Source: Fibrobacterota bacterium
GTDB lineage: Bacteria; Fibrobacterota; Fibrobacteria; UBA11236
Assembly: GCA_043753995.1 (NCBI GenBank)
Contig: JAYUVP010000059.1
Coordinates: forward strand, 1 to 25,415
Length of the DNA stretch: 25,415 nt
Direction: 5' to 3'
Shown in pieces: positions 5,446-22,867 of this stretch. The notes under the pieces are model-generated. The model did not search any database and was not told the origin of the DNA. It saw only the letters and a program-made list of their open reading frames with translations. Positions within the stretch are counted from its first letter, which is position 1, and every line of letters begins with the position of its first letter. Position numbers and translations under genes: made by a program.

Positions 5446-6183
5446 ATGGCCTTCTTGCTTAAAATCGCCCATTTCGTGCGCGACGGCGGCCCCATCGAAT
5501 ACTTCATTCTGATTTTGCTCGCTTGCGGGCTCTCCATTTTCCTTGAGCGCTGCTGGTTTTTTTTCATCAAATGTCGTCTCAATACCAAGCAATTGCTGGG
5601 CGATATCACCTCCCTCATCCGCAAAGACCAAGTTGGCCAGGCACGAAAGCTGTGCAATCAAACGGCCACTCCCTTAGGATTCATACTAGAGGCGGGAATT
5701 TGGCGGTTTGAGCAGGCTGGAACCCCACAAGAAATCAAGGATGCCCTGGAGGAAGTCAGCCTTCGTGAATTGCCTCGTTTGCAAAAACGCACCCATTACC
5801 TCAGCCTATTGGCCAATCTGAGTACTCTGGTGGGACTACTCGGCACCATTTTCGGCTTACAGGAAGCCTTTGCCGCGCTGGAATCCGCCGATCCTTCCCA
5901 AAAAAGCAAACTCCTAGCCCGTGGCATTACCCTGGCGCTCAATGCCACCGCGCTAGGACTTTTAGCAGCCATGCTTTGCATGGCGGGCTACACCTTTTTG
6001 GGTTCGAAGGCCAATGAATTGCTGGAGCAAATTGACGAAACCGCCCTGCGTTTGACGAATTTCCTGAATGCCCAGCGTAAAAACGGTTTAGGAAATCCTC
6101 CTCCCTCAGTTCCGCCTTCCGTTCCGCCTCCCCCTCCTACCTATCCCGTTTTTCCTGGTCCCGCCACCCACCCTTCACGCTAA
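5446..6183 (+). CDS. MotA/TolQ/ExbB proton channel family protein (AglR-like)
   Basis: Three TM segments; N-terminal GG...IFLER; TM2 TLVGLLGTIFGLQEAF; LLARGITLALNATALGL; Pro-rich C-terminal tail. Confidence 0.92.
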   Translation: MAFLLKIAHFVRDGGPIEYFILILLACGLSIFLERCWFFFIKCRLNTKQLLGDITSLIRKDQVGQARKLCNQTATPLGFILEAGIWRFEQAGTPQEIKDALEEVSLRELPRLQKRTHYLSLLANLSTLVGLLGTIFGLQEAFAALESADPSQKSKLLARGITLALNATALGLLAAMLCMAGYTFLGSKANELLEQIDETALRLTNFLNAQRKNGLGNPPPSVPPSVPPPPPTYPVFPGPATHPSR

Positions 6184-6200
6184 TCCAGGACAATAAAGAC

Positions 6201-6713
6201 ATGAGCGGAGGTTCGGCAGCAATGGGGCAAGGCAAAAAGCGCCGATCCTTTTTGGCTGCCGCAGAGTCGGAAGAACTCGACATGACCCCGATGATGAACA
6301 TTCTCATCATCCTCATTTCCTTTTTGGTCACCATGGTGGTTTTCACCCACTTGGCCGTAGTGAAATTCAGCCTACCTCCGACTCAAAGCGATGAAGTTGC
6401 ACCTGCAGTCACAGAAACAGCGACAAGTGCGGAAGTTCAGCAAAAAGACCTGACCATAGTGGTTTCCGAATCAGGTTATCAAGTGCTTGCCGAGGGACAA
6501 AAATTCGACGCGCATCCCAAAGGGCCCAAGGGTTATGACTTTCCCGCCTTGGCCAAGGATTTGAAGGCATTAAAAGCCCTTATGCCTTTCAATGAAAGCG
6601 TGGTCTTACTCATCGATTCGGCTGTGATATATCAGGACATCATTTCCACCATGGATTTGTGTCGGGAAAATCAGTTTCCAAAGGTTTTGCTTTCTGGCGG
6701 GTTGACGGAATGA
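6201..6713 (+). CDS. ExbD/TolR family protein (Asn at the conserved Asp position)
   Basis: ELDMTPMMNILIILISFL TM motif; C-terminal YQDIISTMDLCR. An alternative start is ATG 6222. Confidence 0.9.
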   Translation: MSGGSAAMGQGKKRRSFLAAAESEELDMTPMMNILIILISFLVTMVVFTHLAVVKFSLPPTQSDEVAPAVTETATSAEVQQKDLTIVVSESGYQVLAEGQKFDAHPKGPKGYDFPALAKDLKALKALMPFNESVVLLIDSAVIYQDIISTMDLCRENQFPKVLLSGGLTE

Positions 6714-7192
6714 GAGCCAAGAAGCGTAAGCCTCCTGAAGTGGCCAAACCGCAAATGACATCCCTGGTGGATGTACTCACCGTGCTCGTGTTTTTCCTGC
6801 TCAAGAATTTTTCAACCGAAGGCGACATAATCACGCCGGCTCCTGGGCTGACCTTGCCCAGCAGTACGGCCAGGGAAAGGCCGGAAAAAACCTTGGTCAT
6901 CGCCATTAGTCAAGAACATGTCCTTGCCGAAGGGCAACCCATTGCCGCGGTGCTCGACGAGGAGAAACGCCCCGGTTACCGTATTCCGGCTTTGAGTGAT
7001 TGGCTGGATAAGCGCCGTAAATCCACTGAAAATATTTCCCAAATCGACTCCACCGTGGGTTTTACCGGCAAGCTCAGCATTCAAGGCGATCGAGCCATTC
7101 CTTTCGCGATCTTGCAAAAAGTCTTGGTGACCTGCGGCGAAAAGGGCTATTCCGATTTCGCCTTAACCGTCGATCGTAAGGACGACAAATAG
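6710..7192 (+). CDS. ExbD/TolR family protein (Asp retained, AglS-like)
   Basis: QMTSLVDVLTVLVFFLLKNFS TM; LTLPSS; IQGDRAIPFAILQKVLVTCGEKGY. ATG 6710 overlaps the upstream stop (ATGA). Confidence 0.92.
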   Translation: MRAKKRKPPEVAKPQMTSLVDVLTVLVFFLLKNFSTEGDIITPAPGLTLPSSTARERPEKTLVIAISQEHVLAEGQPIAAVLDEEKRPGYRIPALSDWLDKRRKSTENISQIDSTVGFTGKLSIQGDRAIPFAILQKVLVTCGEKGYSDFALTVDRKDDK

Positions 7193-7193
7193 C

Positions 7194-8195
7194 ATGAGTC
7201 CCTCGTCATCGCCAAGCACTCCCCCGACTCAAAGCCCAGGCGATAAAAGGCGCTATAAGGACGGCCCATTTGATCAACTCGATGTGCCCGCCATTGCCAG
7301 CTTTGTGCTTTGCTTGCTCGGCCTTTTTCTATTCCTGACCTGGGTTCGTTCTCTCGACGGAAGTCACTTCATAACCGAGGGTGAAAGCAATGGTGTGGAT
7401 CGGGTGGCGCGCATCCTTATGCCGCCGAAAATGGCCTTTATTCCCTCTTCCGCCGATGTGCCGAGGCAGGTAAGCCTGGCACCGAGCACGCGTCCCAAGC
7501 CCGCCCCCGTCGATCCCACGGCTCGTTCCCGCATCGAGCGCTCTAGGCAGGCAGTGGAGCAACATATTGAAAAAGTGCAGCAAACAATGCCTAAGTCCGG
7601 CTTGCTCGCCATTCTTTCCGCCAAGGGTGGAGGCAGGGGCACGGCTGTCGGCGCCTTGGGATCACGAATGCGGATTTCGGGCCTGGGTAGCCTAGGATCA
7701 CGCCTGCAAGGCTTAGAAGGGCTATCCCGAGTGAGTGGCAATCAAGCCCTGCGGTCCGATCAAAGCAAGGAGCCTGCCGATGTAGGCATTGACAAGCTTT
7801 ATAAAGGATTCGACAATGCCAAGTTGGGGGCGCTCTCGAAAATCGGATCACTTGATCTCGATAAGAGCGAGAGAGTAGACCGGGGGCGGCGATATGCGAA
7901 TGCGCGCAATGTACAGGAACTGCATGCCGTCATCAGCCGCAAGCAAACCGCCATCCGCATGCTCTATGAAGAAAGGCTTCGTACCAGGCCGGATCTCGAA
8001 GGTAAAATCACCTTGATGCTAGTCATTGAGGAGGATGGCACGGTGTCCCACGTGAGCGCTATTCCCGGAGAAACAAGCCTCGACGACACCGATTTGATCG
8101 CTGAAATATTAAGGGTGGTGAAGCGCTGGGTATTTCCAGCTTTTACCGGTGGAGCCATCGAATTAAAAACCCCGTTCGTCCTGAAGCCCCAATGA
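7194..8195 (+). CDS. TonB-like energy transducer with AgmX/PglI-type C-terminal domain (GltG-like)
   Basis: Single N-terminal TM; Pro-rich then Gly-rich linker containing KSGLLAIL; C-terminal IRMLYEERLRTRPDLEGKITLMLVIEEDGTVSHV...VKRWVFP...KTPFVLKP, a TonB_C-like fold. Confidence 0.85.
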   Translation: MSPSSSPSTPPTQSPGDKRRYKDGPFDQLDVPAIASFVLCLLGLFLFLTWVRSLDGSHFITEGESNGVDRVARILMPPKMAFIPSSADVPRQVSLAPSTRPKPAPVDPTARSRIERSRQAVEQHIEKVQQTMPKSGLLAILSAKGGGRGTAVGALGSRMRISGLGSLGSRLQGLEGLSRVSGNQALRSDQSKEPADVGIDKLYKGFDNAKLGALSKIGSLDLDKSERVDRGRRYANARNVQELHAVISRKQTAIRMLYEERLRTRPDLEGKITLMLVIEEDGTVSHVSAIPGETSLDDTDLIAEILRVVKRWVFPAFTGGAIELKTPFVLKPQ

Positions 8196-9088
8196 AAAAA
8201 GCAAATGTGAAATGGCTTAGCTGGATCATGATTTTTGCATTTGTGACGCAAGCCGCCGTCATTAAGCCCGGTATGTATTTGAATATCGTGGTAAAGAATG
8301 ACAAGGATTTATCGCAAATCGTGCGGGTCAATGATAATGGCACCATAGACTATCCGCTCTATCAGGATATGAGCATTTCCGGAAAAACCACTAGCGAATT
8401 GCAGGACTTGCTCACCTATAAGCTCGCCAAGGTAGTGGAATCGCCACTGGTACTGGTGAGCGTCATTACGGAAAACCCCATCAACCTCTATGTGCTGGGA
8501 CAGGTTAAAAAACCAGGACTGGTCACCGCGGTTCCCAAAGCGAATTTGCAGGAAGTCCTGATGCTGGCTCTAGGTCCCACGGAGCAGGCCGACCTTTCGC
8601 GCGTCAAAGTCGTACACCGGAATCTCGGCGACGAAACGGCCAACTATTATGACTTGCAGCGTTTTCTATCGAGCGGCGACCTGTCATTACTTCCCAATTT
8701 AGAAGATGGAGATCGCATCATTTTTCTCAGCTCAAAAAAATCGAAATACATCAAGGTCCTGGGGGCGGTGAACAAGCCCGGTTTTTATCCCCTCACTGAA
8801 GCCGCATCGGTATTTGACATGGTCTATCTCGCCGGAGGTCCCACGGTCGACGCCAATTTGAATAAGGTGAGAATCATGAGTGCGCCTGGCGGACAGAAGT
8901 CAGACTTCCTCCTCGATATGCAAAAGTTCATTGATGAAGGCAAAACCGAGAACTTGCCATTACTAGGCGAAGGGGATGTGGTCATTGTCTATGCCAAGTC
9001 CTTCACCTGGGAAAAAAGTCTTGCCGTGGTCCGCGATTTGGTCGCCTTGGTGACGGCCTGGTTCGTCATCTCACAATTGGCGAAATGA
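8192..9088 (+). CDS. Polysaccharide export protein, OPX/Wza-like, with two SLBB domains
   Basis: Poly_export-like VRVNDNGTIDYPL...GKTTSEL; SLBB starts YVLGQVKKPG and KVLGAVNKPGFY; LEDGD and LGEGD ends; C-terminal amphipathic helix; lies directly upstream of wzc. Confidence 0.88.
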   Translation: MKKANVKWLSWIMIFAFVTQAAVIKPGMYLNIVVKNDKDLSQIVRVNDNGTIDYPLYQDMSISGKTTSELQDLLTYKLAKVVESPLVLVSVITENPINLYVLGQVKKPGLVTAVPKANLQEVLMLALGPTEQADLSRVKVVHRNLGDETANYYDLQRFLSSGDLSLLPNLEDGDRIIFLSSKKSKYIKVLGAVNKPGFYPLTEAASVFDMVYLAGGPTVDANLNKVRIMSAPGGQKSDFLLDMQKFIDEGKTENLPLLGEGDVVIVYAKSFTWEKSLAVVRDLVALVTAWFVISQLAK

Positions 9089-9089
9089 C

Positions 9090-11222
9090 ATGAGAACCTT
9101 GCAGCGCGAACTCGATTTCGCCGACTACCTGCGGCTAATCAACAAGAACAAATGGATTCTATTGATTTCGCTAGTGGCCTTCCTAGCCCCCACATGGTGG
9201 TTCGTGCAGCGCATCCCCAATATCTATGTGGCCCAAGCGCAAGTGGTTATGGACGAGGCCAAAGGCAATCCTTTGATGATGGGCATGGACGAGGGGCCTA
9301 AGCACAATCTCGGCTACTATCGGGCGATTTTCCGTAGTAAGGCATTTCAAGATCGCCTCATGCAGGCCACCTCGGAAAGTCTTATCAAAGCGGGTATGCC
9401 GACCACCCGCGAAGCCATGGACAAATATGTCGAATTGGGCGAAGGCATGGTGGAGTCCTTTATTTCACTTTCGGCGCACACTTCCAATGCTTCCATGAGC
9501 TATCAATTAGCGCAGACCGCGACGGATTCCCTGGTGGTTTTTTGCCGACGCGTTTCCAACGAAGAAAGTGAAAAAGCCATTGAGGCCATCAAGGCGCAGA
9601 TCGAAATCTGCGTGCGGAAAAGGGATTCGATCCAATTTCAGAAAAGCACCTTCACCGACGTATCACGCATGTCGAGCCGTGGCGACAATTTGGGACTTGA
9701 GGCGCTAGAGAAAAACTATCAAGACGAACTGGTCAAATTCGAGCTCGACAAAGCCAATCTCGAAGCGAAGCGAACTTATTTCCAGGCTTTGGATAAAAGC
9801 ATGCACCAGGGACAGGCCGGAGTCAATGACACAGCGGTGCAGTCCGCGAAAGAGCATCTAAAGCAATTGGAGAAAGAAAAGGAAAAAATGCTTCGCCTCG
9901 GCATTACCCTTACGCCCGAAAGCCCGCTTTCACAAGACTTACAACAAACCGAAGAGCGAATCGTCAAGCTCACCCGCAAGGGCGAACCGCAAGACCTCAA
10001 TGTTTTAGCCCAATGGCAAGTGATGCGTAAGGAAGTCACAGCCATGGAATCAGACATGCAATTGAAAAAAGCCAGGCTGGATGCGTTCAAGAAAGCCATT
10101 ATCCAATACCGCGAATCCCACCCTGACCTTGGCAAGCAGGAATATGAAATCAAGCAACTCGACAACTTGCTCGAACGTTATACCGAAACGCATAAGCGGC
10201 TCACGGACCGGCTCGAAGATGCCATCATTCAATTGCAAAGCAAAAGTGGTGGGCTCAAAATCGTCGACGCAGCGCAATTGCCCACGACCCCAGTGGCACG
10301 TAAGGACTACATCTTTTATTTGGTTGCATTTGTGGTCGCACTCGGCTTCGGCATTGGACTTTCGGTCCTGAGAGAATTCCTCGATGATACGGTGAAGACC
10401 AATGATGATATTGAAAAGCATTTGGCCTTAACCCTATTGGGAACCATTCCCCATATCGAAACCTCGAAAGCCGATCTCGAAGTTCAACGCACCTTCACTA
10501 AGGGCAAGCAAAGAATCCGGAATCGCTATCCCGAGCTCATCATTGGAGAAAAAAGTGAGGAAAGCATTGTCGCCGAAGCCTATCGCAGCTTGCGCACCAA
10601 TGTGGTTTTCGCCTCACCTGACAAGCCCATACAAACCTTGCTCATCACCAGCTCTGGTCCTGGCGAAGGCAAGTCCCTGACAATGGCCAATACCGCTTTG
10701 AGCTTTGCCCAACAAGGCGAGCCCACCCTCATCGTGGATACCGATTTACGCCGTCCTGTCGCCCATCATCTATTCGGCATAGAAAGGTCCCCTGGATTCG
10801 GCGAAATCATCGCAGGAACCGCCACCATAGACGAATGCATACGGGACATACAGGGAGCGCAACTCAAGGTCATCACCGCGGGCGCCTATATGCCGAATCC
10901 CGCCGAAGTCCTTGGCTCGCGAAAAATGGATAACCTGCTCAAGGAATTAAAGCAGAGATTCCACTATATCCTCTTCGACACCCCCCCCGTCATCGCCGTC
11001 ACGGACGCCGCTATTCTTGCCACCAAACTGGATGGCGTCATTCTTGTCACCCGGTCTGGAAAAACAAGCATGCAGGTCAGCCAAAGGACTCTGCAATCCT
11101 TGCGCAATGTGAATGCTCGCATACTGGGCTGCATTCTCAATGATGTCGATATCACCCAGGGCTATTCAAGCCACAGCTATTACAAGCATTATTATCATCA
11201 TTACATGACCCGCAAGGACTGA
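9090..11222 (+). CDS. wzc: Polysaccharide co-polymerase / BY-kinase (Wzc family)
   Basis: Two TMs flanking a coiled-coil periplasmic region; EAYRSLRTN; Walker A SSGPGEGKS, A' IVDTDLRRP, B ILFDTPP; Tyr-rich tail GYSSHSYYKHYYHHY. Confidence 0.95.
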   Translation: MRTLQRELDFADYLRLINKNKWILLISLVAFLAPTWWFVQRIPNIYVAQAQVVMDEAKGNPLMMGMDEGPKHNLGYYRAIFRSKAFQDRLMQATSESLIKAGMPTTREAMDKYVELGEGMVESFISLSAHTSNASMSYQLAQTATDSLVVFCRRVSNEESEKAIEAIKAQIEICVRKRDSIQFQKSTFTDVSRMSSRGDNLGLEALEKNYQDELVKFELDKANLEAKRTYFQALDKSMHQGQAGVNDTAVQSAKEHLKQLEKEKEKMLRLGITLTPESPLSQDLQQTEERIVKLTRKGEPQDLNVLAQWQVMRKEVTAMESDMQLKKARLDAFKKAIIQYRESHPDLGKQEYEIKQLDNLLERYTETHKRLTDRLEDAIIQLQSKSGGLKIVDAAQLPTTPVARKDYIFYLVAFVVALGFGIGLSVLREFLDDTVKTNDDIEKHLALTLLGTIPHIETSKADLEVQRTFTKGKQRIRNRYPELIIGEKSEESIVAEAYRSLRTNVVFASPDKPIQTLLITSSGPGEGKSLTMANTALSFAQQGEPTLIVDTDLRRPVAHHLFGIERSPGFGEIIAGTATIDECIRDIQGAQLKVITAGAYMPNPAEVLGSRKMDNLLKELKQRFHYILFDTPPVIAVTDAAILATKLDGVILVTRSGKTSMQVSQRTLQSLRNVNARILGCILNDVDITQGYSSHSYYKHYYHHYMTRKD

Positions 11223-11225: not shown

Positions 11226-12908
11226 GTGAAGTCGCTCGCGCGCGTCGTCAGCAACAGCCTTCACTTTTTGTTTTCCAATCTCCTAGGCTTCGCTATGGGC
11301 ATGGTGGCGTCCATCGTCATGGCGCGTACCTTAGGGCCAAATGATTTGGGGATTTTTCATCAAGCCCAATGGTTCGCGGGAACGCTCTCTTTTTGCCTTT
11401 CTCTAGGATTCATGACTACGGTGACTAAGTTCACGGCACAATATCGCGCAGAAGGAAGACATGCCGATATTGCAGCAGCGGTTCGTTTCATTTACCGTGT
11501 CGAATTCGCCATTGGCCTAATAGCTACCGTCGGACTCATTCTCTTCGCCCTGCCTATAGCCGATCATTATTTTTCCCCGAATGAATCACCGCTTTTCATT
11601 TTGGCCTTTTTAGCCATCACACCAGGGCTTCAGACCGCCGTCCTCTCGTCCGCAATGGAAGGCGCGCAGATTTTCAGGTATCAAAGCCTTCACGCCATGA
11701 CGCTTACACCGCTTTCTCTCATCGCCAAAGTCGTATTACTGGTTCAAGGCTATGGTCTAATTGGACTATTCTGGTGTAATCTTGCTTTTGCGGTTTTTAA
11801 TCTGGCCTTTTATCATTGGGCTGTGGACCGAGAAGGCCTCATCGCCAATTCCAACCGCAATGACGCGAATCCATCCAAAACCTGGAAAGGGGAATTGCTC
11901 GGCTATACTCGTTCTATCGTGGGCATTCAATTCGTCGATTTGCTGGTATGGTCACGTTCCGAAAATTATTTCTTGGGCCGTTTCTGCCAAGCCGCGGAAA
12001 TCGCCTACTATAACCTGGCGCAAAATCTTCTACTCCGTTTTACGGGGATATTGCCGAACCTCATGTGGAAAATGCTGCTTCCACTCACGGCCGATCACCA
12101 TGGCCGGGAGGATACTGTTAAACTCGGTCGAACCTATCAGCTCGCCATGCGATATGCGGCCTGTATTTCCTTTCCCATCATCACGTCCTGCTTCTTCGCG
12201 TCCTTTGAACTCATCGTGATCTTTTATGGACACCTTTATGCAGAGGCGAAAACTTGTTTTCAAATTTTATGCGTAGGCGCCCTATTAACAACCTTGGCAC
12301 AGCCAGGATCGGCGGCATTATACGCCACCGATAGGCAAAAATTCATTTTTCGCTATGGTTTAGTTTTAGCGGTATTTAATATCGCCTTTAACTTCTGGAT
12401 CATTCCCAAATTTGGAGCCACCGGCGCCGCAGCCAGTTATGCCATAACCACCGGACTCGGTGCCATTGGGGGGTTCATTTACACATGGCATACCTTAGGC
12501 TTTGCTTTGCCTTTCGCTTCCTTTATCCGCTGCGCTATCGCCAGCGCTGGACTAGGGATAGTCTTGGTGGCTGCACTGAATATGCCCGTCGAACCTTTTG
12601 ACTTCCTCACCGGACTTTCGCGAACATTGCGTAATCACACCGGTTATGGAATGGAAATTTTGCTTGGCGCACGCACCCTACGTTTGCTATTGGCATTATG
12701 CCTTGGAAGTACCACCTATGCGATTTTCCTTTTCATTTTGGCCAAACCCAATTCTGATGACCTTTTGGTCTTGGAGTCTTTGCGGCGTTACCTGCCTAAG
12801 CCCGTAGCCAAGGGTTTGCAATGGGCGGTGAGCCACAAGAAGCCGCTTGCCACTATCCACTCGCCACTATCCGCCCAAGAAATTGGCACCGACAACGATT
12901 CTGTATAA
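11226..12908 (+). CDS. wzx: Oligosaccharide flippase (Wzx/MOP family)
   Basis: GTG start; many hydrophobic helices; ARTLGPNDLGIF; N...IPKFGATGAAASY; locus context. Confidence 0.9.
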   Translation: MKSLARVVSNSLHFLFSNLLGFAMGMVASIVMARTLGPNDLGIFHQAQWFAGTLSFCLSLGFMTTVTKFTAQYRAEGRHADIAAAVRFIYRVEFAIGLIATVGLILFALPIADHYFSPNESPLFILAFLAITPGLQTAVLSSAMEGAQIFRYQSLHAMTLTPLSLIAKVVLLVQGYGLIGLFWCNLAFAVFNLAFYHWAVDREGLIANSNRNDANPSKTWKGELLGYTRSIVGIQFVDLLVWSRSENYFLGRFCQAAEIAYYNLAQNLLLRFTGILPNLMWKMLLPLTADHHGREDTVKLGRTYQLAMRYAACISFPIITSCFFASFELIVIFYGHLYAEAKTCFQILCVGALLTTLAQPGSAALYATDRQKFIFRYGLVLAVFNIAFNFWIIPKFGATGAAASYAITTGLGAIGGFIYTWHTLGFALPFASFIRCAIASAGLGIVLVAALNMPVEPFDFLTGLSRTLRNHTGYGMEILLGARTLRLLLALCLGSTTYAIFLFILAKPNSDDLLVLESLRRYLPKPVAKGLQWAVSHKKPLATIHSPLSAQEIGTDNDSV

Positions 12909-12912: not shown

Positions 12913-14061
12913 ATGGGACGACGATGCGCAGTCTTCATTGATGCCGAACCCCCCAGTCTTACCGGGGGTGGCATTCGAAGTTATTTGCTGCACACTGCCA
13001 CCTTGCTACAGAATGCCGGAATGGACATTCGCATTTATAGTCAAAGTCCGGAAGCCTTTTCTGATTTTCATTGCCGACCGATACAAAGGAAACCTTGGCC
13101 TCCCAGACCTTTACGCGGATGGCTTTACAAGCATGCTTATGCCCAAGCCGTCGCCTTTGAGCAATCGTTGTGGCTAGCGGATACCCTACTGGCCGATCAC
13201 CATGAACAAATGCGGTACGAATTCTGTGACTATGACGGCCTAACCTTTCATGCATTGCTTCGCCCGCCTTTAAAAGCATGCCTCAGCGTGCGTGTGCATA
13301 CCCCCCTTTTTTTAATACCCGGTTCCCATAATCGAGGAGAAAGTGTTTGGCCAAGGCGCCTACTTGCCTGGCGAGAAAAGTTTTGCTTAAGCCGAACACC
13401 CAAGTTGTCGGCACCCTCACCAGAGTTTCTGGCGGAAAAATTACCGGATTTACAGAGGGCCATTACACTATTCAATCCGCCACCGGAAATGACAGCTTTC
13501 TCCGGGAAACGCACCCGAGAACCGCTGAGGCCCGACTTTCTTTTTCTGGGACGATGGGAAAAACGCAAAGGCTTGCTTGAACTTTTGCAGGCCTTCGCCT
13601 CATTTCAAAAGCACGTCCCTGAAGCCCGCTTAACCGTAATCGGTGAGTCGGGAAAAAGCGATTATGCCGGACAAGTTTCCGCCTTTATCGGAAAGGGATT
13701 ACCCTGGCTGACCGTAGAACCGGCCTATGCCGGGCCCAAGGATGAATTGTTTTCCCGCTTCAGTGTGCTATTGATTCCCTCGCTTTGGGAAAATGCCCCT
13801 TATGTGTTTTACGAAGCTTTGGCCCATGGCATCTTGGCCCTAGGCTCAGCTACTGGAGACATGGGTGCAGCGCAAAAGCAAACCCACCAATTGAATCCGC
13901 AAGGAGGATCTCCAGAAAATTGGACCGCAGCCTTGCTGAAACTTTGGGAATACCGTCACCTAGCCGTTACCTGGCGGGAAAAGCAAATTGCCTGGATACG
14001 CGGGCGCCGAAAAACGACCGAAAATGACATGATTAAATATTGGACACATTGGCCCATATAG
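12913..14061 (+). CDS. Glycosyltransferase family 4
   Basis: GGGIRSY, FLFLGRWEKRKG, PSLWENAPYVFYEALAHG (EX7E). ATG 12913 is preferred, 4 nt after the wzx stop. Confidence 0.88.
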   Translation: MGRRCAVFIDAEPPSLTGGGIRSYLLHTATLLQNAGMDIRIYSQSPEAFSDFHCRPIQRKPWPPRPLRGWLYKHAYAQAVAFEQSLWLADTLLADHHEQMRYEFCDYDGLTFHALLRPPLKACLSVRVHTPLFLIPGSHNRGESVWPRRLLAWREKFCLSRTPKLSAPSPEFLAEKLPDLQRAITLFNPPPEMTAFSGKRTREPLRPDFLFLGRWEKRKGLLELLQAFASFQKHVPEARLTVIGESGKSDYAGQVSAFIGKGLPWLTVEPAYAGPKDELFSRFSVLLIPSLWENAPYVFYEALAHGILALGSATGDMGAAQKQTHQLNPQGGSPENWTAALLKLWEYRHLAVTWREKQIAWIRGRRKTTENDMIKYWTHWPI

Positions 14062-14072
14062 GCTTGATTCGT

Positions 14073-15311: not shown

Positions 15312-15894
15312 ACGATTGCTGGACATAGTCGGCAGCCTTCTTGGCCTTCTGTTGTTTTTTTTGTTTTTGCCTTTCCTCGCCATGCTGATCAAGTTGGATT
15401 CGCGCGGCCCCATCCTTTTTGTGCAAACTCGCGTGGGACAATACGGTCGCAGGTTCAAGTTTGTCAAACTTCGCACCATGATAGTCGATGCGCATCAGCT
15501 CCAATGGGAATTGAATGCCTTCAATGAAACGGGTGGCCTGACTTTCAAAATGGATAAGGACCCTCGCATCACGCGCGTAGGACGCCTACTTCGACGCACT
15601 AGTCTGGATGAGACACCCCAGTTTTGGAATGTCCTCCGTGGCGAAATGTCCTTGGTCGGCCCACGTCCTCCCCTCTTAAACGAAGTCGAACGCTATGACG
15701 AACAGCAGCGAATACGCATGACCGTGCCCCAAGGCATGACCGGCCTTTGGCAGGTGCGTGGACGATCCGGACTACGCTTCGGTGAAATGGCCAATCTCGA
15801 CAACTATTATGCGTTGCACGCCAATTTGCCTCTCGACTTGGCCATACTTTGGCACACACTTCCGGTCGTATTCTCGGGTCGAGGAGCGCGATGA
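15268..15894 (+). CDS. Priming phosphoglycosyl transferase (bacterial sugar transferase, small monotopic form)
   Basis: KRLLDI, KLDSRGP, KLRTM, DPRITRVGRLLRRTSLDETPQFWNVLRGEMSLVGPRP, GMTGLWQV. Confidence 0.95.
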   Translation: MALPQAPHPGYRAIKRLLDIVGSLLGLLLFFLFLPFLAMLIKLDSRGPILFVQTRVGQYGRRFKFVKLRTMIVDAHQLQWELNAFNETGGLTFKMDKDPRITRVGRLLRRTSLDETPQFWNVLRGEMSLVGPRPPLLNEVERYDEQQRIRMTVPQGMTGLWQVRGRSGLRFGEMANLDNYYALHANLPLDLAILWHTLPVVFSGRGAR

Positions 15895-16853
15895 CTAGGG
15901 TTGCACTGCATGCCGAGACCCTGGCCCACTCTTCAAACATGACCTTGGCCGTGGTCACCTTCAATCAAGCGACTTTGCTTAAACTTTTTCTCGCCCGCTA
16001 TCTGAGCCATGGTGCTTCGCTGGTTCGCCTACTCACCATCGACGACGGATCCACGGACGAAACTCCGGAGTTACTGCGCCTGTCAGCGATGCATCCGGAA
16101 ATTACCACCCTTCGCATCGAACATGGTGGGGCGGCCAAGGCCCGCAATGTTGCTCTCAAAACTTGTGTCACCCAATGGTTGGCCTTTACCGACACGGACT
16201 GCGAATTCGACTCAAATTATTTCCTTCAGTTATTACGCGTGCCTACTCTTTTTCCCAATGCCATCGCCGTCGAAGGCGCGGTTCTCCCTCCTGACGGACC
16301 CAAACCCCCCTTGACCCATTGGCTGGAAAACGCGAAGGGTGGAATATTTGCCACGGCGAATTTGGCGTTGCGGCCTACAGCCATTCTCACCTTGGGTGGT
16401 TTTGACGAAGCCTATCCCAGCAATTTGCGAGAGGACACCGACTTAGGCCTCAGGCTCCTGGAGCAAAATCACCCTTGCCCTTTTTTTGCTGACTTGCAGG
16501 TTCGACATCCTTTTGTACCCCGGAAATGGCGCGTTTCCATGGCCCGGGCCTGGCATCGTCAGTGGGAAACCATGCAAGCCGAATCGCGTCTGTATGAGAA
16601 GCATAGGGACTCCTATCGAAAAGTCCGCCGATTGGAAAGTGCCACCGCAACCATGACATGGTGGCGCAAGCGACATTTGGCCTTTTATGCCAAGCAAAAT
16701 TGGGCTTGGACCCAGGCACAATGCGCGAACGGATTTCGATCGGGCATTCAAGCCCTTGTCCGCTATAGTGCCGCCTTGGTTTTGGCAGCTTGGGAACAAC
16801 TTTGCTTGAATCTCCATTGGTTTTTAAACCGGAAAAAACTGGGCATATCTTGA
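15891..16853 (+). CDS. Glycosyltransferase family 2
   Basis: VVTFN, IDDGSTDET, GAAKARN, FTDTDC (DxD), GGFDE...EDTDLGLR. ATG 15891 forms an ATGA overlap. Confidence 0.92.
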   Translation: MTRVALHAETLAHSSNMTLAVVTFNQATLLKLFLARYLSHGASLVRLLTIDDGSTDETPELLRLSAMHPEITTLRIEHGGAAKARNVALKTCVTQWLAFTDTDCEFDSNYFLQLLRVPTLFPNAIAVEGAVLPPDGPKPPLTHWLENAKGGIFATANLALRPTAILTLGGFDEAYPSNLREDTDLGLRLLEQNHPCPFFADLQVRHPFVPRKWRVSMARAWHRQWETMQAESRLYEKHRDSYRKVRRLESATATMTWWRKRHLAFYAKQNWAWTQAQCANGFRSGIQALVRYSAALVLAAWEQLCLNLHWFLNRKKLGIS

Positions 16854-18025
16854 AACGCGAATGCGTGCTTTTGGTGTGGAGTGGAGGGGTCAATCCCGCG
16901 TATTGGTCCTTTTTCGAAGAACTTGGCAAACATGTCGAATTACGGGTACTGACGCCTAAAAGATGGCGACACGGCTCGGTTGAATTCACCTTTCCTTCGC
17001 GAAGCGAAAGACCGGTAAATTACCGCCTGATTCAAGTTGCCTTCCTTTCTTTGGGGCATGCCCGCTATTGGATTCCCAGCCTTATCATTCATCTATTCAC
17101 CCATCGCTCCACCCTTTTGTATTGGATGGATGAACCCGATCGATGGGTCACGACCGTGCATGCCTGGATAGCCAAATTTTTTAGGCCCGACTTGCGGATT
17201 TGTGCTTACATGCTGCAAAACCTGGAAAAGCCAAGCTATTACCGCGACATTCATCGCTGGGCTTGGTCGCAAAACAAGCATTTGATAGACGGCATACTCG
17301 CCGCAACAAAAGAAGCCGCCGAGGTGGCCCGCAAACACGGATATACCGGGGCATTGCAAGTCGTCCCCCTATTCGCCTCAGAAAAACTTTTCCATCCGCC
17401 GACTTTGTTGGACCGCAAGGCTGCACGTGAACGCTTGGGGCTCCAAGCTTCGGACTATGTCCTTGCCTATGCCGGAAGCCTGCATGAGGCCAAAGGCGTT
17501 TTGAGATTGGCACGGATAATGCAATCCTTTCCTCGCTTGCGACTTTTGATTGCCTCCGGTGATTCATGGCCAAATATTTCAAAGCTGGCCAATACACCTC
17601 TCCTGTTGGGACGATTGATTGGCAAAGAAATGCTTCAGTTATTCCACGCCGCCGACGCCGTCATTTTACCCTCTGAGCCACGAGACCATTGGAAGGAGCA
17701 AATCGGTCGCATTTTGCTCGAAGGTGGACTCAGCGGCTGCCTGGCTTTAGGCAGCGATTCGGGAGCCATCCCAGGAATCGTCGGCGACGCCGATTGTCTT
17801 TTCCATGCCGGCGATGACCACTCCCTTCAAAATTTGCTGGAGAAATTACCTTTTCGTGACGGTATACAAAAAGCTAAAAATCAGCGGGATAGGTATCTCG
17901 CGCAATACGCATCTACTCCTGTCGCGGAAGCAACCCTTCAATTCCTTTTAGCCCTGCGAAAAGGCGAATTCTCCGACAAAACCAATCGACCCGAATTATT
18001 CGGAAAGGCTGAATCTTGCGCATAG
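16850..18025 (+). CDS. Glycosyltransferase family 4
   Basis: YAGSLHEAKG, ADAVILPS...WKEQIGRILLEG, GSDSGAIP. TTG 16850 overlaps the upstream TGA; the start is uncertain. Confidence 0.88.
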   Translation: MKRECVLLVWSGGVNPAYWSFFEELGKHVELRVLTPKRWRHGSVEFTFPSRSERPVNYRLIQVAFLSLGHARYWIPSLIIHLFTHRSTLLYWMDEPDRWVTTVHAWIAKFFRPDLRICAYMLQNLEKPSYYRDIHRWAWSQNKHLIDGILAATKEAAEVARKHGYTGALQVVPLFASEKLFHPPTLLDRKAARERLGLQASDYVLAYAGSLHEAKGVLRLARIMQSFPRLRLLIASGDSWPNISKLANTPLLLGRLIGKEMLQLFHAADAVILPSEPRDHWKEQIGRILLEGGLSGCLALGSDSGAIPGIVGDADCLFHAGDDHSLQNLLEKLPFRDGIQKAKNQRDRYLAQYASTPVAEATLQFLLALRKGEFSDKTNRPELFGKAESCA

Positions 18026-19089
18026 CCTTTTTACATCGCAATGTGCCGCCCGACACCTATACAGGAGTCGCGGTGCAAGTGCATAGGCTAGCCAATGCCT
18101 TGGAGGACTTGGGTCATCAGGTCGACCTTTTCACTTGGACGCCAAATCCATCGGGCGCCAAATATCGAGTCATCACCATGCCGCATTCGGGCCTGGCTTC
18201 GATGGGAATGCGATGGCCTCTGGTAAAGCGCCTATGGCATGCATGGCAATTTCGAAAATTGGATCTCAAATCCTATGATGCCGTGCATGTGCATGGGGAC
18301 GGTGGTTTATTGCGCTACTCCAACCATTGGGTGCGCACGCTTTATGGCTCGGCGGCCTTCGAGCGACGTTACGGTTTTGGTTGGTCATCGTGGATTGCCC
18401 AGACCTTAAGTTTTGCCCTGGAGCGCAGGGAAGCCCGAAGCTGCCGCCACCTCATTGCTATCGGTACGCACGTCAAGAAGGCCATTCCACAAGTTAAGGC
18501 AGTCCTACCGTGTATGCTGGATGCCTCTCCGGTCCAGGAACTCTCCCAAACCTCCGACATACCCACCTTGATTCATGTTGGATCTCTGCGTGGTCGAAAA
18601 CGCGGGCACCTGGCTCTGGATATTTTGCGGCATTTGCATGCTTGGAGAAATGACTTCCGGCTGCATCTAGTCTGCCCACCCAAGGAAGCAAAATCATTAC
18701 GCGAATCCCTGTCTGATGCTCGGGTGGAAGTCCATACCCAAATCACGCGGGAAAAATTGAATGCTCTCTATCGTGAAAGCTGGTTTGCCCTCAGCCTTTC
18801 GACTTATGAAGGCTTTGGTGTCACTTTAATCGAGGCCATGGCCCAGGGTTGCCAAGTACTGTCCGTCCCACATGCTGGCGCCTTGGATTTATTTGAAGAA
18901 GAATGGCCCGAAATACTTTGCGAAATCAAGGCTATGCCAGAACGCATCAAGACCCTGGCCCCTCAAGGGAAACCCGATTCCCAGGCAGCGAAACGTGCCA
19001 AGCAATATGCGGCGCGATTTGCTCCCGGGTTAATCGCTCAAGCCTATGTGGATTTGTATCGAAGCACCTCTGAAGGGCGACGGACATGA
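18016..19089 (+). CDS. Glycosyltransferase family 4
   Basis: TTG start, MRIAFL, LANALEDLGHQV, VGSLRGRKRG, STYEGFGVTLIEAMAQG. Confidence 0.9.
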   Translation: MRIAFLHRNVPPDTYTGVAVQVHRLANALEDLGHQVDLFTWTPNPSGAKYRVITMPHSGLASMGMRWPLVKRLWHAWQFRKLDLKSYDAVHVHGDGGLLRYSNHWVRTLYGSAAFERRYGFGWSSWIAQTLSFALERREARSCRHLIAIGTHVKKAIPQVKAVLPCMLDASPVQELSQTSDIPTLIHVGSLRGRKRGHLALDILRHLHAWRNDFRLHLVCPPKEAKSLRESLSDARVEVHTQITREKLNALYRESWFALSLSTYEGFGVTLIEAMAQGCQVLSVPHAGALDLFEEEWPEILCEIKAMPERIKTLAPQGKPDSQAAKRAKQYAARFAPGLIAQAYVDLYRSTSEGRRT

Positions 19090-20582
19090 ATCGCGTTTGG
19101 CAATGGTTGTGGCTACCCAGCTTGCTCCTGGTAGGGGCCGTTTTCGCTTGGCGCTTGCAAAAAATCCCCTCACGCCAGGAGACCGCGGTTTTCTTCATTC
19201 TTTGCTTCGTGATCCCCACTTTGAAGTGGCCGAAATTCGGGGTCTATTACCTCTTCTTCATTAGCATTTTCATCCCTCTGGGCCGCCGAATGTATTACCT
19301 GGTGAATGGTCGACCGCCATTAGATTATTTGATGCTCATCGGCGATGGCGTTATGGTGGGCTTTATCTGCGCCTTGATTCTGCTGTGGATAGTGAATCGC
19401 GAAAAGATGAAGGAACCCCTCACGGTACTCGTGCTCATCTATGCCTCCTTGCTCTTCATCAAGGTATTTTTCTTGAATCAAGGCACCATGGAAGAAGGTC
19501 TGTATGGATTTAAGTTCAATGGACTTTACGTGCTTTTTTATTTCGCAGGAAGCTATGTCATTGCCCATGCCAAAGGCCTAATCAAGGTTTTGAATTGGGC
19601 CACTTTCGCCTTGATGCTCTCCGCCTTATGGAGTATCAAGCAAGTCACCCTTGGCTTCAGCTCCTTCGAGCAAAAATGGCTGGACTCGATCACTTTCACA
19701 ACGCTTCGCATCGAAGGAGTGGTACGTCCCTTTGGCACCTTTGTTTCGCCTGCGGCTATGGCCGATGCCATGTGCCTGCTTTTGATGCTGGGTGCGTTTT
19801 ATATTGCCTTACGACGTGCCCTCTCGCCCTTGTGGGGCTTTTATTTGGTTTGTCTATCCATCGTTCCCTTGCTCATCGCAACGGTTCGGACGAGTTGGGT
19901 GGGAGCGGCCGCCGGGCTCTTTTTCTTCTTCATTTATTTGCGCATAGAAAAAACGTGGATCAAGGGCGTCATACTTAGTGTCGCCCTTGTCGGGCTAATA
20001 GGCATTATCAGCAAAGGAGACAATCAAAGCGACAGCCAAAATGCCGCTTTGTCGGCTAAAATCAGTGGCTCGTCCTTGACTGACGTGATGATTCGCAAAC
20101 GCACGGCAGCTCTCGCCAATCCTCTGCAGGAATACAGCGTGCGCAAGCGAATGCAGATCTGGGGAGAAATCTGGTATTATGCATTGCAAAAACCACTCGG
20201 GCGCGGCCAAGGTACCCAGGGATATGCTCACAGTTATTATTTCCAAATCCTGGGAGAAATAGGCTTTCCCGGCATATTGGCTTTTCTTGGAATTTTGATT
20301 TTCGCTTTCATTCGTGGCTTTCAAGCCTTGCGCCTAAAGCCGGCCCGCGACGAATTGGAATTAACTCGGTTTTTCCTCAGCATCCTTTTCATGTTTTCCA
20401 TTTTGAATTTGACGGGAACGCATTTACATACCAATCCCGGCGACTTGTATTTCTGGTTCAGTGTCGGAGGGTTGGCGCAACTTTATCGTGATGCGAAACA
20501 GCGGCAGAGCGAGGCCCTCTTGCCAACTCCGAACCCATTGGGAATTGCCTTGCCTCCCGAAAATTGGCCTACCCATGCCTAA
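19086..20582 (+). CDS. O-antigen ligase / Wzy polymerase family membrane protein
   Basis: Polytopic; RPFGTFVSP, TVRTSW, PLGRG, AHSYYFQILGEIGFPG (Wzy_C-like H...E.G motif); ATGA overlap with the upstream GT. Confidence 0.85.
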   Translation: MNRVWQWLWLPSLLLVGAVFAWRLQKIPSRQETAVFFILCFVIPTLKWPKFGVYYLFFISIFIPLGRRMYYLVNGRPPLDYLMLIGDGVMVGFICALILLWIVNREKMKEPLTVLVLIYASLLFIKVFFLNQGTMEEGLYGFKFNGLYVLFYFAGSYVIAHAKGLIKVLNWATFALMLSALWSIKQVTLGFSSFEQKWLDSITFTTLRIEGVVRPFGTFVSPAAMADAMCLLLMLGAFYIALRRALSPLWGFYLVCLSIVPLLIATVRTSWVGAAAGLFFFFIYLRIEKTWIKGVILSVALVGLIGIISKGDNQSDSQNAALSAKISGSSLTDVMIRKRTAALANPLQEYSVRKRMQIWGEIWYYALQKPLGRGQGTQGYAHSYYFQILGEIGFPGILAFLGILIFAFIRGFQALRLKPARDELELTRFFLSILFMFSILNLTGTHLHTNPGDLYFWFSVGGLAQLYRDAKQRQSEALLPTPNPLGIALPPENWPTHA

Positions 20583-21666
20583 GGGACCGCATTTCGGAGT
20601 CTTGGGACATTCCTTGGCTGCACCTGAAAACCGCTTGCCATTCACGGACGACAATCTTAATGCCTCTCTTTTTGCGCCGAAAGCTTGGCAATCCCCGGGC
20701 ACACGTCACCTGCAAGTGACCTCAGCATCAGGGGGAATCCATGCTCTCAACACTATCGGACGGCGACACAATGCCCTCTTCGTCTATCGCGGATTAAGTT
20801 CCGGCTTGCAGACGCAAAACGTGGATTTGCTTTATCTCTGGGAAGAACCCTGGAGTCTTCCGGCATGGCAAGCGTGCCAATGGGCCAAGCGGTATGGCAA
20901 ACCATGGCTTTTTTTCTCCGCGGAGAATCGGCCTAAACCCTTGCCTCCGCCTTTTTCACAATTGCGCCAACGTGTTTTTGCACGGGCTGCGGGCGCCATC
21001 GTCCCAACGGCCGAAGTCGCGGAGAATTTACGACGTCATGGCTATACCGGGGTAACCTATGAAATACCCTTATGGACGGCACCAAAACCTTGGGTTGAGG
21101 CAGACCGTACACCCATTTTGGCCTTTGTCGGGAGGCTAATTCCCTTAAAACGCGTGGACGTCCTGATTCGAGCTGCGGCCCGAGCATCCAACTTTCGCTT
21201 ACGAATCATCGGAGATGGACCCGAAGAGAATAACCTTCGCGATTTGGCGCATCAACTTGGCTTTGACGACCGTATTCAGTTCGTGGGGTATGTCCCTCAC
21301 CAGGAATTGAATTCCGCCTTACAAGGCTGCTGCGCCTTGATCCTACCCACGGCGGCGACGCCACGTCGCGCGGAACAATTCGGAAAATCCGTCATCGAAG
21401 CCATCGCCTTTGGCCTGCCCGTTCTGGTCAGCAATACCGGAAATTTGGGCGAATGGATGAAAACTTTCGATTCGGTGCGAATTGTCCGTTGCGATCGCGA
21501 TATGGATTTAGAGGAGGACATTCAAAATTTTCTGAAAAACCCGGTTTCCCGGGAAATCAGGCTGGCCATGCGTGAAAAAGTCCAACAACGCTATGGACTC
21601 AAGACAACCACCTTGCGATTCCGTGCCGCATTCGAGGATACTTGGAGTAGGTCACAGAAAAGATGA
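20575..21666 (+). CDS. Glycosyltransferase family 4
   Basis: WEEPWS, FVGRLIPLKRVDVL, IIGDGPE, EQFGKSVIEAIAFGLPV. ATG 20575 overlaps the upstream gene by 8 nt. Confidence 0.9.
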   Translation: MPKGPHFGVLGHSLAAPENRLPFTDDNLNASLFAPKAWQSPGTRHLQVTSASGGIHALNTIGRRHNALFVYRGLSSGLQTQNVDLLYLWEEPWSLPAWQACQWAKRYGKPWLFFSAENRPKPLPPPFSQLRQRVFARAAGAIVPTAEVAENLRRHGYTGVTYEIPLWTAPKPWVEADRTPILAFVGRLIPLKRVDVLIRAAARASNFRLRIIGDGPEENNLRDLAHQLGFDDRIQFVGYVPHQELNSALQGCCALILPTAATPRRAEQFGKSVIEAIAFGLPVLVSNTGNLGEWMKTFDSVRIVRCDRDMDLEEDIQNFLKNPVSREIRLAMREKVQQRYGLKTTTLRFRAAFEDTWSRSQKR

Positions 21667-21673
21667 AAACGCA

Positions 21674-22867
21674 ATGAAACGATTCCGTCGTGCCCTTTTT
21701 CGCCGCGCAGAAAACATCCTCAGCGGAAGCTTGGCAAAGCTTGCTGGCTTACGCAGTCGCCGCCGGTCTCCAGAGATTCCTCGCAACGTTCTCCTAGTAA
21801 AATCTTGTTGTCTGGGAGATGCCGTCCTCTCCCTTTATGCCATCCGAGAATTCAAAAAAAAATATCCCAACTGCCGACTGGAGGCTCTGGTCAGCTCACG
21901 CATTGAGGCCGTTTATCATGCCTCGCCGGATATCGATCAAGTGCATGCCATGCCAATCACCGGGTTCCACTTGGGGCGCGAAATCTTGCACCCTCGATTT
22001 TGGATTCAAGCCGCAAGGTTGGCCTTTCGCCTGCATCGAAAACAGTTCGACATGCTCATCGATCTCGAATTGTATCGCAATTATGGCGTTACCCTTACTC
22101 GCGCCTTGGGCATTCCCTTTTCGCGTGGATTCGAGGTAGAAGGCGCGCCAGTCAAGGCACATGACCAAGTCGTCTCACGTGGTAGGGATGAACCCGAATG
22201 GCAATGTTTCTACAAAGCATTCGGACTCCTATCCCCTCCCCCCTTACCCATGCCCCTCTTTCCATCAGCCAAACCGCCAACCCGGAATCCAACCCAACCA
22301 AGGGTCGGCCTTGTTTTCGGGGCTTCAGCAAATTGGCCGCAAAAACGATGGCCCTTAGAACACTTCGCGACCTTAGGCCGCGAATTGCAAAAACGCAAAA
22401 TTGATTTAATGCTTTTCGGCTCCACGGAAGAAAAAAGTGATGCCGATTTGCTCATGGTGGAGCTCCCGAAAGCCCACAATACCGTTGGGCAATTGGAGTT
22501 TTCAGCCTTGGTCGAGGCTTTATCCCGGTGCGATATGGTTATCGGCAATGATACTGGCACTCTTCATGTCGCGGCGGCCGCAGGCATTCCCGTGCTTTCC
22601 CTTTTTGGACCCACTTCACCGCAAAAATGGAATCCCCTGACTTCGCGAGCCCTGTTTCTTGGCGGCTTGAATTGCCGTCCCTGTTATTACCTCGGGGATA
22701 TGCCTGACTGCAAACATCGCGATTGCCTACGCCTTTTACGCCCAGAGCGCGTTTTACAAGTCGCACTCGAAGGGCTGGATAGCTCTTATCCCACCGCGAT
22801 TTGGGCCGGTGAAAACCCTATCCCACTCGCAGTAGCGTCCCCGAATATCGAACTGGGCAAGGATTGA
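21674..22867 (+). CDS. Glycosyltransferase family 9 (heptosyltransferase-like)
   Basis: LGDAVL, KRWPLEHF, IGNDTGTLHVAAAAGIPVLSLFGPT, C-terminal CRPC-x8-C-x4-C. Confidence 0.92.
   Translation: MKRFRRALFRRAENILSGSLAKLAGLRSRRRSPEIPRNVLLVKSCCLGDAVLSLYAIREFKKKYPNCRLEALVSSRIEAVYHASPDIDQVHAMPITGFHLGREILHPRFWIQAARLAFRLHRKQFDMLIDLELYRNYGVTLTRALGIPFSRGFEVEGAPVKAHDQVVSRGRDEPEWQCFYKAFGLLSPPPLPMPLFPSAKPPTRNPTQPRVGLVFGASANWPQKRWPLEHFATLGRELQKRKIDLMLFGSTEEKSDADLLMVELPKAHNTVGQLEFSALVEALSRCDMVIGNDTGTLHVAAAAGIPVLSLFGPTSPQKWNPLTSRALFLGGLNCRPCYYLGDMPDCKHRDCLRLLRPERVLQVALEGLDSSYPTAIWAGENPIPLAVASPNIELGKD

Follow-up and report, generated by a model that had tools for sequence, protein, structure and literature searches.

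Genes for a putative Glt/Nfs-like proton-driven motor adjoin a Wza/Wzc-type polysaccharide pathway across much of the Fibrobacterota

Motor, transducer and exporter genes at the locus

The window analyzed here is the whole of a 25,415-bp contig (C59) from the 5.2-Mb metagenome-assembled genome (MAG; 97% complete, 1.25% contaminated) of an uncultured bacterium from sediment that belongs to the Fibrobacteria (phylum Fibrobacterota). Between positions 5446 and 22867 it carries 16 closely packed open reading frames (ORFs), all on the forward (+) strand, with a sigma-70-like promoter candidate in front of them. Pfam and NCBIfam scans of the 22 ORFs of the window gave the order MotA/TolQ/ExbB, ExbD, ExbD and AgmX/PglI-domain protein (i.e., a TolQ/TolR-type motor with a TonB-like transducer), followed by a polysaccharide export protein of the outer membrane (OPX protein), Wzc, Wzx/MOP, two family 4 glycosyltransferases (GT4), Bac_transf, GT2, a GT1-family protein, GT4, a Wzy_C-family protein, GT4 and GT9. 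The number, orientation and families of these genes agree with an earlier reading of the DNA made from its letters alone (hereafter, the first-pass annotation). As the comparison across the phylum makes clear, the adjacency of the motor genes to the OPX-Wzc pair is no local accident.

The channel subunit of the motor is an AglR-like protein of the MotA/TolQ/ExbB family (245 aa; 5446..6183; PF01618, 88 bits). Its top NCBIfam match is TolQ, at 58 bits and so far below the cut-off of 221; for the array's TolR-like side, the TolR equivalog score (26) is likewise far below its cut-off (127). The protein ends in a proline-rich tail (approximately residues 213-245, positions 6082-6183); its relatives lack the tail, and their alignments end near residues 212-217. 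Two ExbD/TolR-like genes (PF02472) follow. In the product of the first (6201..6713; 61 bits), Asn replaces the transmembrane Asp, within a TP(M/V/I/L/F)MN motif from which none of the 41 orthologues departs. The second (6710..7192; 45 bits), for which the longest ORF runs from 6659 and an ATG at 6710 gives a 4-nt overlap with the gene before it, has the Asp, in a TS(L/V)(V/I)D motif present in all 40 orthologues that cover the site. Two PF02472 genes with a fixed Asn versus Asp difference are the layout of two distinct TolR-like subunits, and we infer, by analogy with the published AglQ/AglS model, that the two proteins would form a heterodimer. A gammaproteobacterial cluster has the Asn/Asp pair as well, and another cluster of the window's own genome, on contig C347, pairs Ser with Asp; in the same genome, the ExbD of a canonical TonB system on contig C36 has the Asp.

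The relationships of the channel subunit were examined in a tree of 55 MotA-family rows, which was rooted at the midpoint and is limited by that root and by long branches. All OPX-linked copies fall into one clade together with two unlinked copies. The sisters of this clade are the gammaproteobacterial copy and then the C347 copy, and a long stem parts the clade and its sisters from the other nine ExbB/TolQ paralogues of the genome.

The TonB/TolA-like transducer (333 aa; 7194..8195) is made up of a transmembrane (TM) helix, a linker and an AgmX/PglI-type TonB C-terminal domain, the last 90 residues being covered by NF033768 at 68.4 bits against a cut-off of 40; only ∼30 residues lie ahead of the helix. 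In the structure model, the TM helix (residues 31-54) and the C-terminal domain (237-332) reach a predicted local distance difference test score (pLDDT) of at least 90, and the linker is of low confidence. The best Foldseek matches of the C-terminal domain are TonB C-terminal domains, although weak ones (E ∼0.01, root-mean-square deviation 2.7-2.8 Å over 73-86 columns), and a family profile run against the sequences in the PDB gave only weak TonB matches as well (E of 0.016 or worse). Pfam TonB_C has no match in the window transducer at E ≤ 0.01; orthologues do match PF03544. Orthologues in other families also match the gliding_GltG model from the TM helix to the end (positions 326-649), at 112.6 bits with the cut-off at 650. 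The TM helix carries S-x3-C in the window's family and, in distant orthologues, the S-x3-H motif known from the TM helices of E. coli TonB and TolA.

The stop codon of the transducer gene overlaps the start of the gene for the Wza-type OPX protein (298 aa; 8192..9088), whose signal peptide lacks a lipobox Cys and which carries one Poly_export and two SLBB domains as well as a C-terminal helix. The OPX model (pLDDT 92) places a 25-residue helix at residues 273-297, and its best Foldseek matches are full-length E. coli Wza structures (9r64_A and 2j58_A; E ∼1e-18, ∼300 columns). The helix is kept in 46 aligned orthologues, those of a sister family without the motor (f2, see below) included. Because of this Wza-like fold and the conserved C-terminal helix, the modeled protein looks like one of the OPX classes that cross the outer membrane on their own, in contrast to the OPX proteins of Myxococcus. 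Co-folding of OPX residues 22-298 with the transducer C-terminal domain (residues 232-333) scored 0.00 against a mark of 0.32, which is evidence neither way. Directly downstream is a Wzc-type polysaccharide co-polymerase (PCP) of class 2a with a tyrosine autokinase domain (9090..11222; Wzz, GNVR and P-loop families), which scores 185 bits against TIGR01007 (cut-off 108) and has a Walker A motif (GPGEGKS), a Walker B motif (DTPP) and a Tyr-rich tail. No gene for a Wzb phosphatase is present in the window.

Conservation of the motor-exporter linkage

To place the locus in the phylum, 296 Fibrobacterota genomes were searched for the OPX and MotA orthologues, and the tables of their places were compared. 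A single-copy OPX orthologue is found in 75 of the 296 genomes; it is absent from all 151 genomes of family f5, which is presumably the Fibrobacter group, and from all 12 of family f4. A MotA match of at least 46% identity occurs in 70 of the 75 OPX-positive genomes and in 1 of the 221 OPX-negative ones; the 46% line was set after seeing the data, and second copies reach 44%. Within the window's family, the two genes are adjacent in 17 of 19 genomes (16 of 18 when the unpublished G021 is left out), and all 13 fetched loci share one gene order from the motor as far as their sequence extends, which is to GT9 in 11 of them (L031 and L032 end earlier). However, the flanking genes, namely Obg, a divergent gene for a 152-aa protein and MltG, are also kept within this family, so that synteny at the family level proves little by itself.

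The picture outside the family is more telling. Among 51 OPX-positive genomes from other families, 45 have the MotA orthologue on the same contig and strand as OPX, 2.7-3.4 kb upstream of it. Of the 32 loci fetched outside the window's family, 28 come from ten other families, and in 27 of these 28 the genes MotA-ExbD-ExbD-TonB-like stand directly upstream of OPX-Wzc on the same strand. The genes past Wzc vary from family to family (a methyltransferase, a GT4, a phosphoglycosyl transferase or an NlpC/P60 protein), and neither Obg nor the 152-aa neighbor was detected in the loci of the ten other families. Since the adjacency is kept over deep divergence while the flanks change, these gene orders make it very probable that the motor forms one system with the OPX-Wzc pair. 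The first-pass annotation had read them as one machine and had proposed a synteny search in related genomes as a check; the conserved linkage bears out the pairing. Elsewhere, the two genes lie on different contigs in G276, G295, G120, G108 and G044; apart from the two truly unlinked genomes (G116 and G295, see below), contig ends block the adjacency call in four.

The wider comparison also places the locus within a larger array, which the first-pass annotation had not seen. In distant families, the order is two signal-peptide proteins, two giant tetratricopeptide repeat (TPR) proteins (∼1150 and ∼990 aa), a protein of ∼100 aa, MotA, ExbD, often a STAS-domain gene, ExbD, the TonB-like gene, OPX and Wzc. 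The giant TPR proteins liken to GltD/GltE and the ∼100-aa protein to GltF. The window holds no TPR genes of the GltD/GltE/GltC type; in its genome, orthologues of the TPR pair are found on a 6.2-kb contig (C167) that ends inside the second TPR gene. In the complete chromosome of a member of the same family (G012), 354 kb separate the motor from the TPR pair and the small gene; the ancestral array was thus cut, in the window's family, between the small gene and MotA, with the motor staying with OPX-Wzc. In two other genomes (G116 and G295) the break is between the transducer and OPX instead.

Several further features of these arrays deserve mention. The STAS-domain gene (∼106-124 aa), which stands between the two ExbD genes in most of the distant Fibrobacterota arrays (e.g., L080:3960-4334, L096:3928-4302, L101:5926-6291 and L108:7232-7552), is absent from the window's family and, judged by gene spacing, also from others (e.g., L089, L097 and L100); a cytoplasmic STAS protein within a stator operon suggests regulation of the motor. 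The paired signal-peptide proteins upstream of the TPR pair (∼370 and ∼410 aa; L115:3721-6116, L116:3616-5939, L117:2907-5326, L111:5-2265 and L110:5385-6191) have charged, coiled-coil-like C-termini and no Pfam family. An Atlas feature search with one of them placed it near "Transporter" clusters and, at a score of 0.96, near Phenol_MetA_deg-type clusters, which we treat as a lead only; clusters of the latter type are outer-membrane barrel proteins, and the paired proteins may be the outer-membrane part of the machine. Family f2 (L112, genome G027) retains the first giant TPR protein as an orthologue of 30% identity, along with a shorter version of the second, and has no motor orthologue, so that one may ask whether some motor serves these TPR proteins, and which.

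The window's genome holds other systems of related kinds (11 TonB_C and 12 MotA_ExbB matches in all), canonical TonB systems among them. The cluster on C347 (L066:3347-15817) is a second, more distant Glt-core-like cluster directly upstream of mreB-mreC-mreD and contains an OmpA/beta-helix protein, two TPR proteins (737 and 1266 aa), MotA, ExbD, a protein with an AgmX domain and one of 449 aa that weakly matches PopA porin. The second ExbD of this cluster, the one with the Asp, is broken up over two short ORFs (L066:6133-6333 and 6385-6618), possible causes being an error in assembly, a frameshift or a stop codon. The genome has five OPX loci, of which the annotation covered those of the window and of C36; none of the loci on C183, C249 and C304 has a MotA_ExbB, TonB_C or AgmX-domain match on its contig. 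We considered the C36 locus as a second case of motor-exporter linkage and rejected it, the TonB system there (L070:2259-7402; DUF3450, MotA of 524 aa, MotA of 204 aa, ExbD, TonB and TPR) being 16 kb from OPX with unrelated genes on mixed strands in between. This system resembles the Vibrio TonB2 type. The gammaproteobacterial cluster, from a MAG (L063:1541-5776), consists of MotA, ExbD (Asn), ExbD (Asp) and an AgmX-domain protein, with a small TPR protein before it and a MatE transporter after it; there is no OPX in that genome.

Promoter, junctions and remaining genes

The promoter candidate, TTGCAC-N17-TATAAT (5379..5407, +; TTGCAC at 5379-5384, TATAAT at 5402-5407), sits in the 155-nt gap between the divergent gene for the 152-aa protein (4832..5290, −) and the first motor gene, where the first-pass annotation had placed it; a promoter scanner calls the same site shifted by one base (TTTGCA-18-TATAAT, 10 of 12 matches). 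Promoter-like sites are not above chance in the interval 4700-24400 (11 found, against 16.4 ± 3.7 in shuffled sequences), so the match to the consensus proves nothing alone. Conservation of position and sequence among relatives is better evidence for a promoter, as judged from the 13 family loci that have upstream sequence (the window and 12 of its 13 relatives, L032 having none). A strict TTGNNN-N16-18-TANNNT is present in eight of the 13, with the motif at approximately −122 from the estimated start in L037 and L038 instead of at −67; in the remaining five (L026, L028, L033, L034 and L035), inspection by eye finds GATAAT or TATAAT after TTGCAT, TTGCTT or TAGACA.

With plausible start codons, all 15 junctions between the genes of the array lie between −10 and +17 nt, in line with the ≤17 nt first reported for them; with the starts of the longest ORFs, some overlaps reach 122 nt, and the figure thus depends on the choice of starts. 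The ATGA at 8192-8195, where the transducer ORF ends (8195) and the OPX ORF starts (8192), had been taken as a sign of translational coupling. The 4-nt overlap is indeed present but is specific to the window, and we rejected coupling through it as a conserved feature: among 40 loci, the gap from the transducer stop to the estimated OPX start has a median of 22 nt and a maximum of 245 nt, and it is ≤100 nt in 36. No convincing terminator-like site was found inside the array (27 sites, against 25.9 expected).

Downstream of Wzc, the array encodes a Wzx/MOP-family flippase (11226..12908; PF13440 at 80 bits, PF01943 at 54 bits) and two GT4 glycosyltransferases (12913..15311; ORFs from 12847 and 14040, with likely starts at 12913 and at 14064 or 14073). 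The next gene is that of a small phosphoglycosyl transferase of the Bac_transf family (15268..15894; PF02397, 201 bits; TIGR03025, 264 bits, below the cut-off of 296), the initiating enzyme. It is followed by one glycosyltransferase each of the GT2, GT1 and GT4 families by Pfam (15891..19089) and by a Wzy_C-family membrane protein (19086..20582; PF04932, 40.4 bits against a cut-off of 31.7), which could, from its family, be of the polymerase or of the O-antigen-ligase type. A GT4 and a GT9 (heptosyltransferase-family) glycosyltransferase are the last of the array by Pfam and NCBIfam (20575..22867). The GT9 gene (21674-22867) thus ends a cluster of exopolysaccharide type close to a Wzy_C-family protein that could be a ligase, and from these families the polymer might have heptose in it or a linkage to the lipid A-core.

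On the upstream side, the divergent 152-aa protein has a signal-peptide-like N-terminus and appears to be secreted; it has no Pfam or NCBIfam match and is conserved at 58-74% identity in all 12 family loci that reach its position. On the downstream side, an MltG/YceG gene begins at 22987, 119 nt past the last gene of the array, and a protein with fibro-slime and PA14 domains (24245-25414) runs off the contig end. At the other end of the window, positions 1-3726 hold a 760-aa ORF that is open at its 5′ end (weak GGDEF/FliG_M-like matches only) and a sigma-54 response regulator.

A proposed motor for an exported polymer, and its relatives

On balance, we lean towards a Glt/Nfs-type proton-driven machine that works with the Wza/Wzc pathway, of which the window would hold one family's version of an old Fibrobacterota array. 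By analogy with TolQ5R2-TolA and AglR5-AglQ/AglS-GltG, the two ExbD-like proteins would pair as a heterodimer enclosed by five channel subunits, with the protonatable Asp on the second alone, and proton flow would drive the TM helix of the FHA-less, GltG-like transducer. The long linker of the transducer would cross the periplasm, letting the TonB-type C-terminal domain engage a partner near the outer membrane. The likeliest partners would be the GltD/GltE-like TPR proteins (in this genome, the pair on C167) and the GltF-like small protein; direct engagement of the exporter, one of the options raised in the first-pass annotation, has no counterpart in the Agl-Glt structural model of 2025, which arranges AglR5 around the AglQ/AglS heterodimer with GltG and has the TonB-type C-terminal domain of GltG bind GltD and GltF and no exporter. 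The machine would act on the polymer as it leaves the Wza/Wzc translocon, or on the translocon itself, such that the polymer may be spread, wound, anchored or pulled, as Agl-Nfs does with the spore-coat polysaccharide of Myxococcus.

The strongest alternative, which we nevertheless regard as unlikely, is that two independent envelope systems lie side by side through shared regulation or inherited gene order, with no mechanical coupling: the motor would be a Glt-core or Tol-like machine (serving, e.g., envelope integrity or cell shape), and the rest an ordinary Wza/Wzc pathway. Several observations weigh against the coupled machine and fit this alternative. In all three OPX-positive genomes of family f2, the gene for the 152-aa protein stands directly upstream of OPX-Wzc-Wzx, and there is no motor orthologue and no room for one, the best MotA matches in these genomes being paralogues at 37-38% identity or none. 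Two further genomes (G119 and G279) have no MotA match, and in G116 and G295 both modules are present but truly unlinked, the motor staying with the upstream TPR genes and being followed by trp or other unrelated genes. The OPX protein has its own outer-membrane helix like that of E. coli Wza and looks self-sufficient; E. coli Wza needs no motor. The C347 cluster, which is Glt-core-like, adjoins mreBCD and not an exporter, and the shared Obg and MltG flanks make synteny within the window's family uninformative. Moreover, related genomes are not independent, and our tallies therefore overstate the number of independent events.

Set against this are the adjacency in the other-family genomes despite changing neighbors, the near-perfect co-occurrence of the motor and OPX genes, and the course of the break in the window's family, in which the motor parted from its TPR partners and remained beside OPX-Wzc. 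There is also a parallel in a Myxococcota MAG, where a Glt-like module is adjacent to an OPX gene (locus L119, see below). The reading as a dedicated machine in the first-pass annotation accordingly holds for the linkage and is weakened by family f2: that family keeps OPX-Wzc-Wzx without a motor orthologue, and the motor is therefore not indispensable for keeping the polysaccharide pathway.

A second alternative is a gliding apparatus of the Agl-Glt kind, with the polysaccharide as slime under the moving cell. The homology of the transducer C-terminal domain to those of GltG and GltJ, the layout of one TolQ-like and two TolR-like subunits and the TPR partners elsewhere in the genome are all as expected for it. 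Nonetheless, we consider gliding improbable: according to Luciano et al. (2011; PMC3169522), the core genes are insufficient for gliding and occur in bacteria without documented gliding; some carriers of the array have flagellar genes; and the Group A Glt parts (GltA, B, H, K, I and J) were not identified here. The transducer is itself a poor match to its gliding counterparts, and here the points count equally against a close Agl-Glt assignment of our own. It scores 43.7 bits against the gliding_GltG equivalog (NF033760; cut-off 650), the GltJ equivalog cut-off is likewise unmet, and Pfam detects no FHA domain in it at E ≤ 0.01. By these sequence measures, the protein is best described as GltG-like and FHA-less but no GltG equivalog, and the AglRQS-GltG architecture that the first-pass annotation recognized stands as regards the TolQ-like subunit, the two TolR-like subunits and the AgmX/PglI-type TonB-like protein, but not as regards GltG proper. 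Nor can the clade of the channel subunit be named "Agl" by phylogeny, as the tree has no Myxococcus reference rows.

Finally, an ordinary ExbB-ExbD-TonB system that energizes a TonB-dependent importer and by chance lies upstream of an exopolysaccharide cluster would account for the ExbB/ExbD families and the TonB-type fold and would be one of the many such systems in this genome, but it is very improbable, given that no TonB-dependent receptor family is found among the 22 ORFs of the window (to which the receptor search was confined), that the MotA clade stands on a long stem apart from canonical ExbB/TolQ paralogues, that the first ExbD lacks the Asp that the canonical C36 ExbD has, and that the C-terminal domain fits the AgmX/PglI model and not Pfam TonB_C.

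Returning to a motor that works with the Wza/Wzc pathway, family f2, which lost the motor, and the two genomes with unlinked modules mean that the exporter can persist without it, and this pattern of gene presence favors an accessory role, in the handling, anchoring or organizing of the polymer, over an obligatory role in export. A bolder proposal, which we put forward only tentatively and would sooner doubt than accept, is that applying the proton-motive force to polysaccharide leaving a Wza/Wzc translocon was the original job of Glt/Nfs-type core machines. If so, the Fibrobacterota arrays would be a Wzx/Wzy pathway with a built-in motor, with an energized step of export or surface deposition that is absent from current models of OPX-dependent secretion, and Myxococcus gliding and spore-coat winding would be later specializations. 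Current models of Wza/Wzc export have no energy source in the periplasm or outer membrane, and the non-gliding core-complex relatives of the gliding motor have been without an assigned function since 2011; the phylum-wide motor-OPX-Wzc array and its Myxococcota parallel link the two questions and make both testable. A pairing kept across much of a phylum suggests a job for a motor family of unknown original role and offers a route toward the function of the G4 and M2 clusters of M. xanthus in a tractable organism.

Among known systems, ExbB-ExbD-TonB and TolQ-TolR-TolA share with the array the protein families and, as predicted, the pentameric channel, the ExbD/TolR dimer plug and the single-pass transducer. 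They differ from it in that the ExbD pair here would be heteromeric with one Asp only and the MotA subunit belongs to a separate clade; TolB, Pal and CpoB were not found in the window by Pfam or NCBIfam. E. coli Wza-Wzc has counterparts here to its OPX D1-D3 domains and C-terminal helix and to the Walker A/B motifs and Tyr cluster of Wzc, whereas the OPX without a lipoprotein Cys, the lack of a Wzb gene in the window and the motor genes in front are unlike it. TonB and ExbB do not occur in the available text of a 2026 paper on the OPX export mechanism (PMC12819527), and we found no description of a motor joined to a Wza/Wzc cluster in a literature search that left most subscription journals and supplements outside its reach.

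Another relative in gene content is the Glt core complex, defined as aglR, aglQ, aglS, gltC, gltD, gltE and gltG and reported by Luciano et al. (2011; PMC3169522), without a known function, from one Fibrobacteres member as well as from some Gamma- and Betaproteobacteria. The core complex and the ancestral array alike bring together one TolQ-like and two TolR-like subunits with a TonB-like transducer and TPR proteins, whereas the window has no TPR genes; none of the 151 genomes of family f5 yielded the OPX-linked module, and the word "polysaccharide" does not occur in the text of PMC3169522. The same source lists the G4, G5 and M2 paralogue clusters of M. xanthus as being of unknown function and MXAN_1922 as the G4 gltD homologue. 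As WzaB is MXAN_1915 in PMC12819527, the G4 cluster is numbered close to it, an adjacency inferred from the locus-tag numbers only; within the same limits of the search, no paper was found that has both the G4 and WzaB tag sets, or WzaB together with GltD/AglR. At locus L119 of the Myxococcota MAG, three TPR genes, a small protein, a GltG-like protein and two proteins without a family precede a short OPX, so that a Glt-like TPR/GltG-like module stands beside OPX there too, but without the motor and Wzc. This OPX is of the short Class-3 type, and the 461-aa protein without a Pfam family in front of it is taken as its putative porin partner.

A system like the proposed machine in what it would do is Agl-Nfs, which, according to a 2025 review (PMC12288465) and to Wartel et al. 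(2013; PMC3858216), acts on the Exo/MASC polysaccharide of the spore coat and, in the former, winds the secreted polymer around the Myxococcus spore. The transducer here is FHA-less, and the OPX of the array has a Wza-like helix, unlike the OPX proteins of Myxococcus, which have no outer-membrane helix according to the review. The two have in common a TolQ/TolR-type motor, a GltG-like transducer, TPR proteins and a Wzx/Wzy polymer with OPX and PCP proteins. That Glt-type modules and exporters lie in separate loci, as the first-pass annotation had it for Myxococcus, does not hold in general in view of L119 but is right for this system: aglRQS, nfs and exo occupy separate loci in Myxococcus, whereas in the Fibrobacterota array the motor, the OPX protein and the PCP are encoded contiguously.

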